A DNA stretch of 64,000 nucleotides, taken from assembly GCA_965228875.1 (NCBI GenBank), contig OZ245843.1, positions 1,842,616 through 1,906,615 on the forward strand, given 5' to 3'. Shown here in pieces: positions 9,374 through 41,641 of this stretch; the first letter of the stretch is position 1, and every line of letters starts with the position of its first letter. Source of the stretch: Thalassobaculaceae bacterium. Its GTDB lineage: Bacteria > Pseudomonadota > Alphaproteobacteria > Thalassobaculales > Thalassobaculaceae. Under the pieces are notes generated by a model. The model saw only the letters and a program-made list of their open reading frames with translations, was not told where the DNA came from and made no database searches. Both the position numbers and the translations under genes were made by a program.

Positions 9374-10261
9374 ATGACCGAGATCCCCGACACCGACACC
9401 ATCGTCTACGTCAACGGCCGTCAGGTGCGGAAGTCGCAGGCGGTGATCTCGATCTACGACAGCGGGTTCTGTCACGGCGACGGCGCCTACGAGGGGATCC
9501 GTCTGTACGACGGCAAGGTGTTCCGGCTGGAAGCCCATATCCGCCGCCTGTACGAGGCCCTCACCCTGCTCGATATCGACCCCGGCATCGATCAGTCGGA
9601 CATGGCGAAGATCGTGCTCGACACCTTCCGCGCGAACGAGCTCGAGACCGACCTGCACATGCGCCTCCAGGTGACCCGGGGCATCAAGCGCATGACCGGA
9701 ATGAACCCGAAGCTGAACCTCGGGCCGGCCTCGATCGTCGCCTTCGTCGACCACAAGCCGCCGATCTTCGACAAGGCGGGAATCACGCTGATCACCTCGA
9801 CCCTGCGCCGGGCCTCGCCGAACGTGATCGACGCCAAGATCCACCACACCAACCAGCTCAATCAGATCCTGGCCAACATCGAGGCGAACCGCCAGGGCGC
9901 GGACGAGGCGATCATGCTCGACGACCGCGGGTTCGTCGCCGAGACCAACTCGACCACCATGTTCTGCGTGAAGGACGGCGTGCTGATGACGCCGCATCCG
10001 ACCTTCATCGTCGTCGGCATCACCCGCGGCATCCTGCTGGAGATGGCGCGGGAGGAAGGCTGGGGCCCGCGCGAGGCCGACCTCAGCGTCTACGACTTCG
10101 TCACCGCCGACGAGGCGTTCATCTGCGGCACCGTCGGCGAACTGGTGCCGATCAGGGCGATCGACGGGCGGCCGGTCGCCGGAGCCGTTCCCGGGCCGAT
10201 CACCGCGCGGCTGATGGAACGCTACAGGGCGTTGACCCGGACCGAAGGCACCGCGGTCTGA
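9374..10261 (+). CDS. Fold-type IV PLP aminotransferase-like protein
   Basis: DSGFCHGDGAYEGIR, VAETNSTT, GITRG, ADEAFICGT; His at the usual catalytic-Lys position. Confidence 0.88.
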   Translation: MTEIPDTDTIVYVNGRQVRKSQAVISIYDSGFCHGDGAYEGIRLYDGKVFRLEAHIRRLYEALTLLDIDPGIDQSDMAKIVLDTFRANELETDLHMRLQVTRGIKRMTGMNPKLNLGPASIVAFVDHKPPIFDKAGITLITSTLRRASPNVIDAKIHHTNQLNQILANIEANRQGADEAIMLDDRGFVAETNSTTMFCVKDGVLMTPHPTFIVVGITRGILLEMAREEGWGPREADLSVYDFVTADEAFICGTVGELVPIRAIDGRPVAGAVPGPITARLMERYRALTRTEGTAV

Positions 10262-34970: not shown

Positions 34971-35960
34971 ATGAACACGCGTCGTTTCGGCCGAACCGGC
35001 CTGCAGATCTCGGAGCTCGTCTTCGGAGGCGGTTGGGTCGGGGGCATCCTGATTCACCAGGATGACGATATAAAACGGACGGCGATCCGCCGGGCACTGG
35101 ACGGCGGCATAAACTGGATCGACACCGCCGGCGACTACGGTCAGGGACAATCGGAGGTCGCGCTGGGCTGGCTACTGGCGGAGCTCGAGCCCGCCGAGCG
35201 ACCGCATGTGTCGACCAAGGTCCGTCTCGACCTCGAGAGCGGCGAAAGTCACGAGAGCCAGATCCGCCGCGGCATCGAGACCAGCCTCGAACGGCTGCGG
35301 ATGAACAAGGTCACCCTGTTCCAGCTGCACAACCCCGTCGAGCCGGAGCGCACCGGCCAGCACGTCGGCGTGCAGGACGTCATCGCCGACGGGGGCATTG
35401 CCGACATTCTGGACGGGCTGCGCCGCGAGGGACTCACCGACCACGTCGGCTTCACCGCCCTTGGCGACGCCGCGTCCTGTATCGAGGTCGTCGAGAGCGG
35501 CAAGGTCGACAGCGCGCAGGTCTACTACAACATGCTCAACCCGACGGCCGGCCTGAGCGAGCCCGTCGACGGGCTGGCCGCTCAGGACTTCACCGGCCTG
35601 ATGGCGGCCTGCCGGCAGAACGACGTCGCCATCATGAATATAAGGGTATTTGCCGCCGGGGTGCTGGCGACCGATGTCCGCCATGGTCGCGAGGTGGCGA
35701 TCACGCCGGAGTCGGCGGATCTGGACAGCGAGGCCAGGCGGGCCCGCGCGGCGATGGAGGTTGCGGGCAGCCCCGGCGAGGCCAGGGCCGAGACCGCCAT
35801 CCGCTTCTCACTCGCCAACCGGGAGCTGTCCTGCGTGGTGATCGGGCTGGCGGAGCTGGAACACCTGGACCTCGCGTTGAGGGCGGCGGAAAACGGTCCG
35901 CTCTCGGCGGCGACGCTCGCAGACCTGCGCGAGCTCTGGGCCCGTAACTTCGACCTTTAG
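34971..35960 (+). CDS. Aldo/keto reductase
   Basis: RFGRTGLQIS, GINWIDTAGDYG, STK, SLERL, QLH. Confidence 0.9.
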   Translation: MNTRRFGRTGLQISELVFGGGWVGGILIHQDDDIKRTAIRRALDGGINWIDTAGDYGQGQSEVALGWLLAELEPAERPHVSTKVRLDLESGESHESQIRRGIETSLERLRMNKVTLFQLHNPVEPERTGQHVGVQDVIADGGIADILDGLRREGLTDHVGFTALGDAASCIEVVESGKVDSAQVYYNMLNPTAGLSEPVDGLAAQDFTGLMAACRQNDVAIMNIRVFAAGVLATDVRHGREVAITPESADLDSEARRARAAMEVAGSPGEARAETAIRFSLANRELSCVVIGLAELEHLDLALRAAENGPLSAATLADLRELWARNFDL

Positions 35961-36072
35961 AGTGAATCACGATCAGATGTTTCCATCTGATCGTGTGAAT
36001 TTGCTCGTTCTTTAATGGCTTAGAGGGCGATTCACGCTTCGGATCGTTTCGATCTGAAGCGATCGCGCTCTA
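35958..36072 (+). repeat. ~115-bp double-hairpin intergenic repeat, copy 2
   Basis: TAGAGTGAATCACGATCAGATG...GATCGCGCTCTA; its first TAG is the stop codon of the aldo/keto reductase. Confidence 0.92.
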
Positions 36073-36086
36073 GCGCCAGCCGCCTC

Positions 36087-37433
36087 TCAGCGCACCGGCG
36101 ATCTCGGGTCGGTCTCGGAGGGCCCCGAGGCCGGCGCGGCGGGCTGGCGCGTGTCGCCTCCCGATGCGGCTGGTCCTGACGCCGTGGTTCCTAACGCCGT
36201 GGGTCCTGGCGCCGGCGTCGCCGCGTCCGCTGGCGGGAACAGGGTCGGGATGTCGGCCGCCGCCTCGGCTTTGCGCTCGGCATCCTCGCCGCCCAGCATC
36301 CTCCGGGCCCCCACGACGATGCGGTTGTAGGCCTTCTCCGAGAGCAGCCCGGAGGCGATGGCGAGGAACGACAGGACGTAGGGGTTGAGATCGTCGATCT
36401 TGTTGTCGGCGGTGCTGCCGCCGGTGAGCGTGAGCTGGCCGGCCCGGAAGAAGATGTAGATGATGATCGCCGCCGCCATCCCCTCCAGCGGACGGGCGAC
36501 GAACCAGGTCACCGTGATCGCCCCGTCGCGCCGTTCCCCGTCTCGGAACAGTTCGCGGCTCATGTGGATCGTGCTGCCGAGAAGGCCCATGGAGACGGTG
36601 AGCGCGAAGGTGAGAAACTCGCTCGGCAGCTGCACCAGGTAGATCAGCACCGAGACGTTGGTGTTCAGCACCTGGCTGACATTCGCCTGAACGTTCGCCT
36701 TGATCTCGTATTCCTTGAAGACCTCGTCGCGGATCGAGTCGCTCTGCTTGCGAAGGCGGTCGAGTTCCTGGGTCTCCAGCCTGAACAGGACCGACAGGTC
36801 GTTGTAGCGATGGGCCGCGCGCTTGATCTCCGTGGCTGCCGCCAGCGCGTTCGCCGACGCCGGGACGAGACGATCTCGGATGTTCTGGAGCGCGTCGCGG
36901 TCGTCGTCGTCTTCGGATGTCCGAATCAACTCGTCGATGACGATCTCGATATGAACCGCGTAACTGCGCCAGTCCCATTCCGCCGGATCACGATCGTTGG
37001 ACGGCCCCACCGACCGACCGACCTTGACGTCCAGTTCGGCCGCCGCTTCGACCACGTCGCCGAACAGGTCGCTCAGTCGGTTCTCCGCCTGCTGCCGCGT
37101 CGCCTCGAGCGCGCGAAGCGTCTGCTTCATGTCGAGGACCGTCCGACGGGTGACGTCGAGCTGATCCACAACATAGGCTTCGCGTTCCGGAATGATGCGA
37201 AGGACCTTGAGCACGTCGCCGGCCTGGTCGGCGCTGTCCTGGATCGTGGTCGACTGGAAGACGGTCGCGCTCAGGATGATGAAGGCGGATCCGAGGCTGA
37301 TGACGTAGAGCAGAACCAGCCAGGAGAGACCGGTGATGCCGATACCCGCCTCGCGGGCGAACTCCACCGTCGCCTTCAGCCCGTCGCCACCGCGCTCGCG
37401 CCCATCGCCGTCTTTCGCACCATCGTTGGACAT
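36087..37433 (-). CDS. Hypothetical membrane protein: N-terminal TM, long coiled-coil, C-terminal 3-TM module
   Basis: MGLLGS...ARPLEG...IFFRAG...NPYVLSFLAIASGLLSE; Pro/Ala-rich tail. Confidence 0.78.
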   Translation of the reverse strand: MSNDGAKDGDGRERGGDGLKATVEFAREAGIGITGLSWLVLLYVISLGSAFIILSATVFQSTTIQDSADQAGDVLKVLRIIPEREAYVVDQLDVTRRTVLDMKQTLRALEATRQQAENRLSDLFGDVVEAAAELDVKVGRSVGPSNDRDPAEWDWRSYAVHIEIVIDELIRTSEDDDDRDALQNIRDRLVPASANALAAATEIKRAAHRYNDLSVLFRLETQELDRLRKQSDSIRDEVFKEYEIKANVQANVSQVLNTNVSVLIYLVQLPSEFLTFALTVSMGLLGSTIHMSRELFRDGERRDGAITVTWFVARPLEGMAAAIIIYIFFRAGQLTLTGGSTADNKIDDLNPYVLSFLAIASGLLSEKAYNRIVVGARRMLGGEDAERKAEAAADIPTLFPPADAATPAPGPTALGTTASGPAASGGDTRQPAAPASGPSETDPRSPVR

Positions 37434-37512
37434 CGCACCCCTGCCCGACAAAGCAGGACCGCATAGTCGATCGCGAATCCCTCGAAGACAAGGATCGCGC
37501 GCACCGATCGGG

Positions 37513-37528
37513 TGTGAGCTAGGTCACA
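37513..37528. promoter_or_regulatory. CRP/FNR-family box TGTGA-N6-TCACA
   Basis: gTGTGAgctaggTCACAc, about 80 bp upstream of the 37433 start. Confidence 0.45.
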
Positions 37529-37555
37529 CTCCGGCCTCCGGCATGGGGTCTCCGG

Positions 37556-37657
37556 TCAGTCTCCTTGCGACTTGAGGGTGAACTCGCCCTCGCGAATCCG
37601 ATGCGGCCACTCCGATACCATCTCGGCGACGGTCTCTTCGCCATAGATGTCGATCAT
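37556..37657 (-). pseudogene. Displaced original 3' end of the target gene (MIDIYGEETVAEMVSEWPHRIREGEFTLKSQGD*)
   Basis: Manual translation, 33 codons plus TGA; 23 of 32 aligned residues identical to the C-terminus of 39287..39538. Confidence 0.92.
37644..37657 (+). repeat. att core, left copy TAGATGTCGATCAT
   Basis: Identical to 39372-39385; sequences diverge completely to the right of it. Confidence 0.9.
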
Positions 37658-37784
37658 CTACGCCCGGCCCGCCAGCGCCGTCCATTCGGGAATCATGAAC
37701 CGGCTTGTCGGGCCATCTGCCCATGGTAAACCAAGCCAGCCGTTACGCTTTACGTCACACTGCAGCATTTGGCAGGAGGCTTGT

Positions 37785-38090
37785 ATGTCCGCCGGACCCC
37801 CGCGAACCACCGAGCACCAGAAGCGTCTCCGGAAGCAATTCGGAATGTGGATCAAACGCCTCCGGGAGGCGTCGGAGTTAACGCAGAAGGATGTGTCGGA
37901 AGCCCTCGGGCATGGATACTTAACGACTCTTTCGCAGTACGAAAGAGGAATTCGACCGGTTCCTATGAACTACTGGCCTATTCTGGCAAATATCTACCAC
38001 ATGAAGCCGAAAGAGTTCGCCATGCGAGCCCTAAAACTTTCGGAACCTGATGTGTTCTACATGATTTGGGGTTCAGATCAGGAAGATTGA
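37785..38090 (+). CDS. XRE-family helix-turn-helix protein
   Basis: IKRLREASELTQKDVSEALG...LSQYERG; AGGAGG RBS at 37774; AT-richer codons. Confidence 0.9.
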   Translation: MSAGPPRTTEHQKRLRKQFGMWIKRLREASELTQKDVSEALGHGYLTTLSQYERGIRPVPMNYWPILANIYHMKPKEFAMRALKLSEPDVFYMIWGSDQED

Positions 38091-38092
38091 GC

Positions 38093-39256
38093 ATGACGGT
38101 GATGAAACGATCCGGATCGAAGTACTGGATGTACGAATTCAGGTTCGACGGGGAGCGGTATCGCGGGTCGACCAAACAGACCAACAAGAAGGCTGCCCAG
38201 GATGTCGAGCGGAAGGTGCTCGAAGACCTCAAGGCGCGAAAGCGTGGTGGGTTCGAGACGAGCATCATCCTGGGGGAGGCCGTCGATGCCTACGGTGAGC
38301 GGTACGCCCGGCGCACCCGGAGCGGGCGCCAGATCCAGGTCCAGGTGGCCGCCCGGGTGAAGCACCTGGGGGCCGACCGTGTGTTCGACGACCTGGACAC
38401 CGACGACGTGATCGGGATGTTCGACCGGATGGTCGAGAACGGCTACAGCAAGTACACCGCTGGGCTCTACACGGCCCGGCTCGGCGCGGTGATCAACTGG
38501 TTCGCCGAGAGCAAGCCGAAGGTCGCCCGTTCGACCAACATCGCGTTCCCCAAGGCCAAGCGTCCCCGCCGGGAGCGGGATCTGACGCTGGACGAGGAGC
38601 AGGCGATCCTGGACCAGCTGGACCCGGACCTGCCGATCCACGAGCACACCAAGCTCCGCTACCTGATCGACACCCAGGATGTCGCCGTCATGCTGGCCGA
38701 CACCGGGGCGCGGATCAGCGAGGCGGTCTCGGCGACCTGGGACATGGTCCTTTGGGACCGGGACATGCTGAGGCTCTACCGGATCAATACGGACAGCTGG
38801 TCGAACATCCCTCTGTCGCCGCGCATGGCTGACATGCTGCGCCGCCGGGAGGAACTGACCGAGGGCTCGCCCTATATCTTCCCGAACCAGTCGACGAACC
38901 CGCGATCGACCAGTCCCCACAAGTCGACCGAGATGCACGCCCTGGAGCGCGCCATCGACTGCGCCGGGGTGAACGCCCAGCACCTTGTGGACCGCTACGG
39001 GAAGGTCACGCTGCACACCTACCGGCACACCTTCATCACCCGACGGGCCGAGAAGGGGATCGCACCCTGGACCCTCCAGGAGGTCGCCGGTCATGCCCAC
39101 CTGTCGACAGCCCTGGGCTACGTCCAGAACCGCCGGATCGCCTCGGCGTCCGTCAAGGCGGCGCTGGCGGGGTCCCCACAGCTGGTTTCGGAGAGAGAAG
39201 CCTCCCCCTACTTGTCCCCTCGCTACAGCGGTCGCACTAAGCGCGCTCTGTCTTGA
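38093..39256 (+). CDS. Phage-type tyrosine recombinase / integrase
   Basis: N-terminal arm-binding-like YWMYEFRFDGERYRGST; DTGARISE (R), HTYRHT (HxxR), AGH and LGY (catalytic Y). Confidence 0.93.
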   Translation: MTVMKRSGSKYWMYEFRFDGERYRGSTKQTNKKAAQDVERKVLEDLKARKRGGFETSIILGEAVDAYGERYARRTRSGRQIQVQVAARVKHLGADRVFDDLDTDDVIGMFDRMVENGYSKYTAGLYTARLGAVINWFAESKPKVARSTNIAFPKAKRPRRERDLTLDEEQAILDQLDPDLPIHEHTKLRYLIDTQDVAVMLADTGARISEAVSATWDMVLWDRDMLRLYRINTDSWSNIPLSPRMADMLRRREELTEGSPYIFPNQSTNPRSTSPHKSTEMHALERAIDCAGVNAQHLVDRYGKVTLHTYRHTFITRRAEKGIAPWTLQEVAGHAHLSTALGYVQNRRIASASVKAALAGSPQLVSEREASPYLSPRYSGRTKRALS

Positions 39257-39286
39257 AGGGACGCTCTGGGGGCGCCTTGGTCGGAG

Positions 39287-39538
39287 CTAAGTATCTGACT
39301 TCAAAGTGAACTCTCCGGCACGGATACGGTCGGGCCACTCGGCCACCATATCCGCCACCATCGTAGCCCCGTAGATGTCGATCATGTCGGTCAGCGCCGC
39401 GAATATCGCCGAGGAGGCGACGATCTCCGACGACGCGCCCTGCGCCACCGCGTCGTCCCAGGCTTCCAGCATCACCTTGAGCGCAAGTCGCTTCTGCTCG
39501 TCCTCGGGCAGGATCGGCGGTTGTTGCTCGTCGCTCAT
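39287..39538 (-). CDS. Small conserved alphaproteobacterial hypothetical protein (83 aa); integration target, chimeric C-terminus
   Basis: MSDEQQPP...KRLALKVMLEAWDDA...MIDIYG...RIRAGEFTL; GGAGG RBS; last 99 bp lie within the element boundaries. Confidence 0.87.
   Translation of the reverse strand: MSDEQQPPILPEDEQKRLALKVMLEAWDDAVAQGASSEIVASSAIFAALTDMIDIYGATMVADMVAEWPDRIRAGEFTLKSDT
39372..39385 (+). repeat. att core, right copy TAGATGTCGATCAT
   Basis: Identical to 37644-37657; encodes MIDI(Y) on the minus strand. Confidence 0.9.
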
Positions 39539-39673
39539 GCTTGCCTCCACAGGGGCCGGACTCGGTACCCGGCGAGCCTTAGCGCGCCGCGGCCGCGCTG
39601 TCACCCGGAACGTGGCCGGGAGCCGTGCCGAGGACCATGGCGGAGCCGGAGCGCCCATGGCAGTGTCGGCGGC

Positions 39674-41641
39674 ATGCACGATCCGTCCCGCGACCCCCGG
39701 CTCGAGTTCCGAGACGGCGCGCCGGTCTCCACCCGGTTCGACGATGTCTACTTCTCCCGCGCGGGCGGGCTGGCGGAGTCCGCGCACGTCTTTCTCGACG
39801 GCTGCGACCTTCCCGACGGCTGGGACCGCCCGGGCGGCCTGCCGTTCACGATCGGGGAGACCGGGTTCGGCACGGGACTGAACTTCCTTGCCGCCTGGGA
39901 GGTGTGGCGCGCGCGCCGACCGGCCGGCGGAGTCCTGCATTACGTGGCGGTGGAGGGGTACCCGATCCCCCGCCCGCTGATGCGCGAGGCGCTGTCGGCG
40001 TTTCCGCGGCTCGCGCCTCTCGCCGCCCGGCTTGTCGAGCGCTATCCGGACACGCCTAGCGGCCTGCATCGGATCTGGTTCGAGCCCGATCGCGTGTGCC
40101 TGACCCTGTCCATCGGCGAAGCGGCCGCAGCCCTGGCCGCCGTCGAAGCGCGGGTCGATGCCTGGTTTCTCGACGGTTTCGCTCCCGCCAGGAACCCGGA
40201 TATGTGGCGCGGGGAGGTCCTGCGCGAGGTTGCCCGGCTGTCCGTTACGGGGACCCGGATCGCAAGCTTCACCGCCGCCGGCAGCGTGCGCCGGGGCCTC
40301 GCCGCCGTCGGCTTCGAGATCTGGAAACGTCCCGGCTTCGGACACAAGCGGGATTGCATCGCCGGCCGCTTCGCCGGGGCGTCCGGGGCGAATACGACCG
40401 TCAGTGCTGGCCAGCCCCCGTGGTTCGCCGCGCCACCGCCGGTCGCCGCCCGTCATGTCGCGGTGGTCGGAGGCGGCGTTGGGGGTGCGGCCACGGTCCG
40501 CGCGCTCGGCCGACGTGGCGTGGCGGTCACCTGGCTCGACCGGCATGGCCGCGCGGCGGCGGAGGCGTCGGGCAACCCCGTCGGCCTCATGATGGCCCGG
40601 CCCGTCCTCGATGCTGGAGGATCGGGATCGGTCAGTCCGGCCGCCTTCCGCCACGCCGTCGAGGAGGCCGCCGGGCTCGGTGTGGCGTTCGGCGGCGACG
40701 GTGTCCTGGAACTGGCGCCGGATCCGGCCTCCGAGGCCCGGTTCGCCGCCCTGGAGGAGGCCGGGCTGCTCTCACCGGTCGGCGCCGTAACCGTGGACGC
40801 CGAAACCGCCGCATCCATCGCCGGTGTCCGGCTCGGACGGCCGGGGCTGTGGCACCGTTCGGGCGGGTGGGTGAATCCCGGAGACTGGACCGCGGCCCTG
40901 GCCGGCGCCGTCCGTCCGATGCGGGCAGTGGTGGGGCGCATCGCCGCCGACGGCAGCGGCTGGACCCTGCTCGACGCCTGCGGCGGTGTCCTGGTGACAG
41001 CGGACGCGGTGGTCGTGGCGTCGGCGATGACCGCCCCGAGACTTCTGGACCGCGCGTTCCTTCCGCTGCAGGCCGTGCGCGGACAGCTCACGCGCCTTGC
41101 CACCACCGCCGCCAGCCGCCGCATCCGGGCCTGTCTCGCCTTCGGGGGATATCTGTCGCCGGCGATCTCGGGCAGCCACGTCGCCGGCGCGACCTACGGT
41201 TTCGACGACACGGCGGCGGGAGTCTGGCCGGTTCCCGTCCGGTCCGAGGACCATGCGCGCGTTCTGAACGGGTTCCCGGACGCGGTCTCGACGCTGTTCG
41301 GAACGGCCCCGTCGCTTCTCGGCGGACGGGCCGCCGTGCGGGCCGTGACACCCGACCGCCAGCCGGCCGCCGGTCCGCTCTGCGACGCCGCCGCCCTCGC
41401 GATGGACTTCGCCCACCTGCGCAAGGACGCCCGTGACGAGTCCGGCTCCTCGCCACCGTACAGTCCCGGCCTCTTCGCGCTCACCGGCCTCGGGTCGCGC
41501 GGGCTGGTGACGGCCCCGCTGATGGCGGAACTCGCCGTATCGCAGATGCTCGGCGAGCCATGGCCCGTCGCCCGATCCGTGGCGGCGGCGGTCCATCCGA
41601 ACCGGTTCGCGATCCGCGCGCTCAAGCGACGCCGGCTGTAG
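39674..41641 (+). CDS. mnmC: Bifunctional tRNA mnm5s2U34 biosynthesis protein MnmC
   Basis: FDDVYFS, ETGFGTGLNF, WFLDGFAPARNPDMW, GFGHKR; FAD domain GGGVGG, ASGN, GLGSRG. Confidence 0.93.
   Translation: MHDPSRDPRLEFRDGAPVSTRFDDVYFSRAGGLAESAHVFLDGCDLPDGWDRPGGLPFTIGETGFGTGLNFLAAWEVWRARRPAGGVLHYVAVEGYPIPRPLMREALSAFPRLAPLAARLVERYPDTPSGLHRIWFEPDRVCLTLSIGEAAAALAAVEARVDAWFLDGFAPARNPDMWRGEVLREVARLSVTGTRIASFTAAGSVRRGLAAVGFEIWKRPGFGHKRDCIAGRFAGASGANTTVSAGQPPWFAAPPPVAARHVAVVGGGVGGAATVRALGRRGVAVTWLDRHGRAAAEASGNPVGLMMARPVLDAGGSGSVSPAAFRHAVEEAAGLGVAFGGDGVLELAPDPASEARFAALEEAGLLSPVGAVTVDAETAASIAGVRLGRPGLWHRSGGWVNPGDWTAALAGAVRPMRAVVGRIAADGSGWTLLDACGGVLVTADAVVVASAMTAPRLLDRAFLPLQAVRGQLTRLATTAASRRIRACLAFGGYLSPAISGSHVAGATYGFDDTAAGVWPVPVRSEDHARVLNGFPDAVSTLFGTAPSLLGGRAAVRAVTPDRQPAAGPLCDAAALAMDFAHLRKDARDESGSSPPYSPGLFALTGLGSRGLVTAPLMAELAVSQMLGEPWPVARSVAAAVHPNRFAIRALKRRRL

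Follow-up and report, generated by a model that had tools for sequence, protein, structure and literature searches.

How does a unit of DNA that consists of little more than an integrase gene, a regulator gene and two attachment sites come to lie inside a protein-coding gene of a bacterial chromosome? The question is raised by a locus in a 64,000-nucleotide stretch of contig OZ245843.1 (assembly GCA_965228875.1) from a bacterium of the family Thalassobaculaceae (class Alphaproteobacteria); this whole stretch is here called the window, and positions are counted from its first letter. Between two identical 14-bp repeats, spaced 1728 bp apart, lie only an XRE-family helix-turn-helix (HTH) gene and a tyrosine integrase gene. 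Site-specific integration of this 1728-bp unit into a gene for a protein of 83 amino acids is supported, because relatives hold empty sites, the native end of the gene has been displaced and a substitute end is borne by the element. At a probability of about 0.5 by our own estimate, the unit would be what deletion has left of a temperate T7-like prophage that is now grounded. The new points are the loss of the catalytic lysine from the integrase, the pairing of XRE and integrase genes as a cassette of T7-like viral contigs, and phage deletion remnants in the same bacterial family.

The 14-mer TAGATGTCGATCAT stands at 37644..37657 (left core, attL core) and at 39372..39385 (right core, attR core), and these are its sole two matches in the window with up to one mismatch allowed; 100 shuffles of the window gave a mean of 0.01 matches, and none of them held two or more. 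Both cores were delimited by the repeat search and by the joint coordinates of public contigs described below. A 127-bp non-coding arm (37658..37784, read on the plus strand) leads from the left core to the start of the XRE gene (37785..38090, plus strand), the integrase gene (38093..39256, plus strand) follows after 2 bp, and a 115-bp arm (39257..39371) runs from the integrase stop to the right core, its part 39287-39371 encoding the substitute C-terminus of the target gene on the minus strand. In a circle the 127-bp stretch would form one attP arm, and arms and core together would amount to 127 + 14 + 115 = 256 bp. The preliminary description of this DNA, made from the sequence alone, had named the same pair of repeats, only these two genes between them and an excisable unit of 1728 bp; the repeat search, the open reading frames (ORFs) and Pfam agree with it, and the unit size is confirmed independently by a metagenome contig that skips exactly that number of bases (see below).

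The 127-bp arm presumably contains the promoter and operator of the XRE gene, and a consensus scan of 37658..37784 found no sigma-70-like site there. A search for arm sites returned a single shared 9-mer, GTCGGGCCA (39329 and 37707), and a near-repeat at 39339/39351, neither above chance. No Rfam family exceeded its threshold near the unit, no tRNA gene lies within 25000-50000, and PADLOC gave no meaningful match. With one close integrase copy in the genome and no terminal inverted repeats at its ends (a scan of 36000-41000 found no pair with arms at both ends), the unit does not qualify as an insertion sequence or transposon. An ATG inside the left core opens a frame of 147 codons (37647-38090, plus strand) that runs in frame into the XRE gene; this is probably due to chance, and public gene calls use the form of 101 amino acids.

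The interrupted gene carries the clearest trace of the insertion. As it now stands (39287..39538, minus strand) it is a hybrid, with codons 1-51 native, codons 52-56 in the core and the last 27 borne by the element; its C-terminus, ATMVADMVAEWPDRIRAGEFTLKSDT followed by a stop, is found in no relative. The displaced native 3' end, 33 codons and a stop (MIDIYGEETVAEMVSEWPHRIREGEFTLKSQGD), lies at 37556..37657 on the minus strand, 102 bp separated from the remainder of the gene. Orthologues from the same genus have C-termini (...MIDIYGEETVAEMVAEWPDRIREGEFTLKPQGD) that resemble this piece much more closely than the end supplied by the element, and by blastn it is 81-87% identical to the single copy of the relatives. 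Since the native end is orthologue-like and the hybrid end unique, the element arrived with its own diverged version of the last 27 codons and pushed the native end aside. At the DNA level the two stretches left of the cores agree at 55 of 88 nucleotides, since each codes for a 3' end of this one gene, and those to the right of the cores, where the 127-bp arm has no homology to the target gene, at only 21 of 60. Homology on one side alone is a classic mark of phages that integrate into the 3' end of a gene, as e14 does in icd (PMC6379469). An extension of the native-end match past the core by HMMER (query residues 34-51, including one TAG) was rejected as homology, with 2 of 18 residues alike by eye.

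The 83-residue protein is acidic and conserved, with homologues in 20 of the 24 other genomes of the family, and it matches no Pfam, NCBIfam, PHROG or PADLOC family. Its gene adjoins an mnmC-like gene (Methyltransf_30 and DAO). The preliminary description regarded a protein-coding gene as an unusual attB, a view that does not hold, as coding sequences host 43.4% of about 1.75 million mapped islands (PMC12424338).

An alignment with relatives had been proposed in order to find the empty site, and it was found in every same-genus genome that carries the gene: all eight have one uninterrupted copy and no integrase, and in all of them the stretch that matches window positions 37556-37657 coincides base for base with the one that matches from 39299 onward. 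Had no integration taken place, relatives without the integrase were expected to keep both 3' ends; each of the eight has a single one. Identical end cores and an uninterrupted attB in relatives, the two marks of a site-specifically integrated element, are thus both present.

Public contig sets of four sequencing runs (X2, X3, X6 and X10) were compared over window positions 36400-40600, and the empty form was found in two of them, X2 and X6, both metagenomes. In X6, a seawater metagenome, a contig of 1662 bp with a depth of 17.6 joins 37643 to 39372 and skips exactly 1728 bp, the 14 letters at the joint fitting either side, and an element contig (37999-39176, depth 4.5) has no difference from the window. 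In X2, a contig of 1798 bp (37628-39425, depth 12.6) holds both junctions, again with no difference, and a contig of 70 bp with a depth of 30 covers 39372-39425 and has 16 extra letters before 39372 that equal window positions 37628-37643, which is the empty junction. Only the occupied form or fragments were found in X3 and X10; X10, which may be an RNA run, has contigs over parts of the integrase gene. In X2 and X6 the contigs that cover the flanks diverge from the window by about 1.5%. Depths of 12.6 for the element and 30 for the empty form in X2, against 37.5 and 45.5 for the flanks, fit a mixture of the window's strain and a sister strain without the element, and do not show excision. No joint of a circular form was found in the contigs of the four runs, although assembled contigs cannot show rare forms. 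The insertion is real, precise, recent and strain-specific.

The integrase, a protein of 387 amino acids with its reading frame open, matches PF00589 over residues 164-346 (E 6.6e-16, 59 bits against a cutoff of 27.1) and the integrase family phrog_1 (E 1.7e-42). Its gene is present once in the genome and has a G+C content of 0.66, against 0.68 for the window. We aligned 26 sequences, namely the integrase of the window, P0004 (96% identical), P0005 (51%), P0006 (46%), 21 representatives (27-36%) and one copy from G013, a genome of another genus in the same family. R207, E210, R311, H334 and Y343 are invariant in this alignment and H308 is nearly so; the R, HxxR, H and Y motifs of the preliminary description stand in this respect, but that description overlooked the replacement of the catalytic lysine. 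Codon AAT at 38786..38788 (plus strand) specifies Asn232 where 25 of 25 relatives have Lys, a position that spacing and motif identify with the lysine of the beta2-beta3 loop (K235 of lambda Int, K201 of Cre). This lysine is conserved in 94.7% of family members according to Table 1 of Gibb et al. 2010 (PMC2943603), which also lists the catalytic residues of tyrosine recombinases. None of the substitutions of Cre K201 described there, Asn included, was measurably active in vitro, and weak activity in vivo is given for a few, Asn among them.

Asn232 is not an assembly error, because the contigs of both X2 and X6 carry the same allele with no differences. The integrase of the window differs from its sister P0004 at 16 positions, and at five of them it departs from strongly conserved residues: K232 (24 of 24 others), R290 (17 of 24), P296 (21 of 24), L318 (22 of 24) and T340 (23 of 24). 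P0004 keeps all five and departs from the prevailing residue at one position only, the half-conserved position 198. We conclude that the protein belongs to the family by descent and is, judged by its residues, probably inactive as an enzyme.

The regulator, a protein of 101 amino acids, matches HTH_31 (E 1.7e-7) and HTH_3 (E 2.6e-6) as well as transcriptional regulators and repressors in PHROG, and its gene has a G+C content of 0.52, in strong contrast to the 0.66 of the integrase gene, with 0.68 for the window. Its counterpart in the sister element, P0160, is identical at 100 of 101 positions, and P0160 and P0004 list the same longest contig of 13,057 bp, the corresponding lengths for P0005 and P0006 being 41,589 and 9,626 bp. 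The place of its gene, directly ahead of int, resembles that of xis in lambda and also calls to mind the Cox protein of P2 and the Apl protein of 186. The XRE protein could serve as a directionality factor as well as a repressor, because it is encoded upstream of int and is a conserved partner of this integrase lineage, and the statement of the preliminary description that there is no excisionase may therefore not hold. Nearly unchanged, the gene may go on providing repression or immunity, which would be part of the reason why this end survives.

Relatives of the integrase are rare. A word-indexed search of 5.8 billion proteins returned three at E <= 1e-20, and 18 clusters at E <= 1e-30 were found among 1.84 billion representatives. 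Of 63 genomes of the order only two, the genome of the window and G013 (33% identity), have the integrase, and of 401 genomes of the class only the window's own. A scan of viral contigs gave 79 loci with integrase relatives, 20-53% identical over the best segment. These loci, together with a 27% relative from a scan of genome contigs (L028) and a 28% fragment from a scan of metagenome contigs (L029), made up the 81 loci that were searched with the XRE protein, and a homologue (32-38% identity) was found in 13. In twelve of them it lies on the same strand as the integrase gene and at most about 520 bp upstream of it, and in the thirteenth it is 3.3 kb away; the twelve viral contigs span 8-51 kb, and in two of them (L041 and L042) the genes abut as they do in the window. 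The three contigs that were checked (L033, L038 and L046; 44-51 kb) all encode a T7-type TerL (phrog_38). A tail fibre gene is present as well in L046, while L033 codes for an RNA polymerase of the single-subunit kind (phrog_414) and for a primase/helicase (phrog_239). The XRE-integrase pair is, by these matches, a conserved cassette of viral contigs, the checked ones being T7-like phages.

None of the viral loci has a piece of the 83-codon gene (best E 0.15). In most of the T7-like contigs (L033, L038, L043, L044, L046 and L047, at about 9570-10020) an ORF of about 110-150 codons to which no function is assigned lies between the XRE and integrase genes; it is missing in the window, L041 and L042, and it might be a candidate directionality factor of those phages. 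Among cultured phages no DNA match to the element was found, the best protein match of the integrase being 24% identical (Roseobacter phage CRP-125) and the XRE protein having only weak matches in Paenibacillus phages. Among plasmids the best integrase match, 28.5%, was on an Azospirillum replicon. The complete genome of the window's own strain has no T7-type TerL or RNA polymerase, while the same TerL query did hit the control genome G013. Between the att cores there is no TerL, RNA polymerase or other prophage gene of those sought, and by this absence of phage genes the unit is at most a prophage remnant.

The genome G013 holds three copies of the XRE-integrase pair, 33% identical to that of the window. 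In the first, a partial copy of 1.48 kb (L032 8965-10443), the XRE gene is cut and fused in frame to a T7-type terminase, forming an ORF of 630 amino acids with Terminase_6N, PF22530 and HTH_31. The other two (L030 4728-7647 and L031 12918-15838) are 2.9 kb long, 99.8% alike and at different sites, and the 1.36 kb beyond their XRE gene matches the DNA just downstream of a second T7-type TerL (99.4% over 349 bp). No clear att sites or flanking direct repeats were found at the ends of the G013 repeats. Because of the terminase fusion and of the terminase-adjacent DNA beyond the XRE gene, T7-like prophages do erode to their integrase end in this bacterial family.

As a separate observation, an Hsp70-like gene in G013 (L032 8665-9219 and 13925-14977) is seemingly split by a remnant of about 4.9 kb. 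For the downstream ORF the match to the HSP70 profile begins only at position 120, and the upstream one starts with a GLDFGTSNS-type motif by eye and has no match in Pfam.

The reading that we prefer, at even odds, is that a temperate T7-like podophage integrated by lambda-type recombination through the 14-bp core in codons 52-56 of the 83-codon gene. The incoming DNA would have carried diverged last codons, as e14 does in icd, so that the gene stayed open and its native end was displaced. An internal deletion would then have removed the rest of the prophage, about 40 kb with the RNA polymerase, replication, structural and packaging genes, and the part retained would be the integration end, with attP arms, XRE regulator and integrase. 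The unit would now be grounded, because Asn replaces the catalytic Lys and near-invariant residues have been lost, and its integrase would be gathering further substitutions at such positions. We favour a remnant because the relatives of the pair sit in T7-like phages and because G013 holds deletion remnants. The preliminary description had left the choice between a minimal element and a deleted prophage, and the viral relatives and G013 remnants now tilt it towards the latter, with the former kept as the less probable option.

Several points weigh against a remnant. No phage gene has left even a fragment, the two cores are perfect, and arms and core together come to about the size of a lambda-type attP. 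A single deletion that ends 127 bp from one core, just upstream of the XRE gene, is unlikely a priori. Both ORFs are open and, at position 198 of the integrase, the more frequent residue (A, 12 of 24) has been lost by P0004 and not by the window. The near-identity of the XRE protein to its sister also belongs here: one difference against 16 in the integrase, where about 4.2 would be expected (Poisson P about 0.08, our own estimate), is only weakly unequal and no more than suggestive. The phage relatives, moreover, are distant (25-37% identity), and a full phage in the past of this particular lineage is conjectural.

Much of this would be expected if the unit were a naturally minimal integrative element, the main rival reading, to which we give a rather low credence. 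Such an element would consist of an integrase, an attP of about 256 bp and an XRE protein serving as regulator or directionality factor, and of nothing else. It would have come in as a circle of 1.7 kb or have been salvaged from DNA that entered the cell, would move between cells passively, and would since have begun to decay in the copy found here. The anatomy is exactly attP arm, XRE, integrase and attP arm with no leftover gene fragments, the 2-bp gap between the genes is operon-like, and the sister keeps the same pair, P0004 and P0160 sharing their longest listed contig. The element contigs are also 100% identical in two metagenome studies in which the flanks differ by about 1.5%, but these contigs may come from the window's own strain mixed with a sister, as the depths in X2 (12.6 + 30 against 37.5 and 45.5) would allow. 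The TIGER/Islander resource drops islands below 2 kb, a floor under which the window unit falls, so that such units would have escaped its catalogue (PMC12424338), and the survey 10.64898/2026.01.13.699239 gives only 12 integrative mobilizable elements (0.5%) with fewer than five genes. Against a self-sufficient element speak the single copy in the genome, the lack of a second host or site among the 63 genomes of the order (only G013, at 33%) and the 401 of the class, and the decay of the integrase. Every relative with a readable context, furthermore, lies in a phage or phage remnant, functions for replication or transfer are lacking, and the genome yielded no helper phage.

That the unit is still mobile, with a partly active N232 integrase, the XRE protein as directionality factor and ongoing excision as the source of the empty and occupied forms, seems improbable to us. 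The two forms do co-occur in X2 and X6; in X2 the flank contigs all carry the letters of the other strain, and the short flanks of the element contig include none of the listed variant places. Cre K201N is, as described in PMC2943603, weakly active in vivo. However, all 25 relatives have Lys and the integrase of the window lacks four further near-invariant residues, simplified assemblies can drop the flank variants of a minor strain, and two strains explain the depths equally well. By far the least probable of the alternatives is that the integrase was a mere passenger and the unit entered by homologous recombination through the duplicated 3' end. The agreement of the two ends at 55 of 88 nucleotides is what speaks for it, but identity extends over just 14 bp at the junction with about 63% beside it, a level insufficient for homologous recombination to work efficiently. 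On the other side of the core homology is lacking, and the integrase gene, at a distance of 115 bp from the core, is placed as usual for an attP.

Among the nearest known parallels are prophages that enter genes at the 3' end. In Escherichia coli, phage 21 and e14, a defective prophage that spans about 15 kb and has many genes, lie in icd, where a tyrosine integrase likewise entered the 3' part of a protein gene. The incoming DNA gives icd a substitute 3' end and a native pseudo-fragment of 163 bp remains, as described in PMC6379469 (with Hill et al. 1989 cited there). The window unit differs in having only two genes, a target gene of 83 codons without known family and a displaced piece of 102 bp. 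The cryptic prophage KplE1/CPS-53 keeps attL, attR, intS and a directionality factor. For grounded prophages, PMC6379469 describes how a recombinase mutation fixes the prophage, deletions erode it and immunity genes tend to stay. Compared with grounded and cryptic prophages of this kind, the window unit is extreme, with a length of 1.73 kb, no phage gene fragment and both cores perfect.

T7-like pelagiphages of the HTVC019P type, which infect marine Alphaproteobacteria, have a tyrosine integrase and an attP core that closely follows int, in the interval separating it from the gene for RNA polymerase (10.1101/410191), and the order of int and attP in the window, with the integrase ending 115 bp from the core, matches theirs; the abbreviation list of Fig. 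4 in the same source includes an XRE family regulator. Pelagiphages, as described there, target tRNA genes, whereas the window lineage targets a protein gene, its best integrase match among cultured phages is the 24% of CRP-125, and no T7-like gene is left in the genome. Tycheposons, PICI-type satellites and small integrative mobilizable elements are also small and have a tyrosine recombinase module of about 1 kb, but according to 10.1101/2020.12.28.424599 they have a replication module of 2-4 kb and cargo or packaging genes and reach 10-20 kb. The window unit, unlike all of these, has no replication, mobilization or cargo gene, and a Pfam scan of its proteins found no relaxase domain. With two genes only and no helper of a related type found in the genome, it does not answer to the description of a phage satellite (PICI, P4-like, PLE or PICMI).

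The surroundings of the target gene vary as well. A protein of 454 amino acids, membrane-associated and coiled-coil by eye and without a Pfam, PHROG, NCBIfam or PADLOC family, is encoded at 36087-37451 (minus strand), in the space that separates the displaced 3' end from an aldo/keto reductase gene (34971-35960). Seven of the eight same-genus loci do not have the 454-codon gene, and there the distance from the reductase gene to the 83-codon gene is at most about 100 bp; in G001 (L011) the 454-codon gene is present at about 70% nucleotide identity. Because this gene varies in presence and the element inserted next to it, the spot beside the 83-codon gene is variable twice over. Two further genomes of the genus, G002 and G010, are without the 83-codon gene; each consists of one contig of about 1.5 Mb with a completeness rating of 99%, and their relatives have about 5 Mb.

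The meaning of the locus depends on which of these histories is right. That a free-standing 1.7-kb lysogeny cassette of attP, regulator or directionality factor and integrase integrates and spreads as such is in our view unlikely; if true, it would be the smallest self-integrating element and a route by which T7-like phages gain or swap lysogeny, the origin of integrases in T7-like phages being called unclear in 10.1101/410191. Were the unit a self-sufficient mini-element, the 2-kb size floors of island finders would hide a class of mobile DNA. As the remnant of a T7-like prophage, it would be a clean example of extreme prophage reduction with intact attachment sites, in which an integrase has been caught early in its decay, the frame still open and the catalytic Lys gone. 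For an integrase lineage that is rare, the locus defines a new attachment site in a protein-coding gene, and the pairing of XRE and integrase genes in T7-like viral contigs points to a conserved lysogeny cassette.

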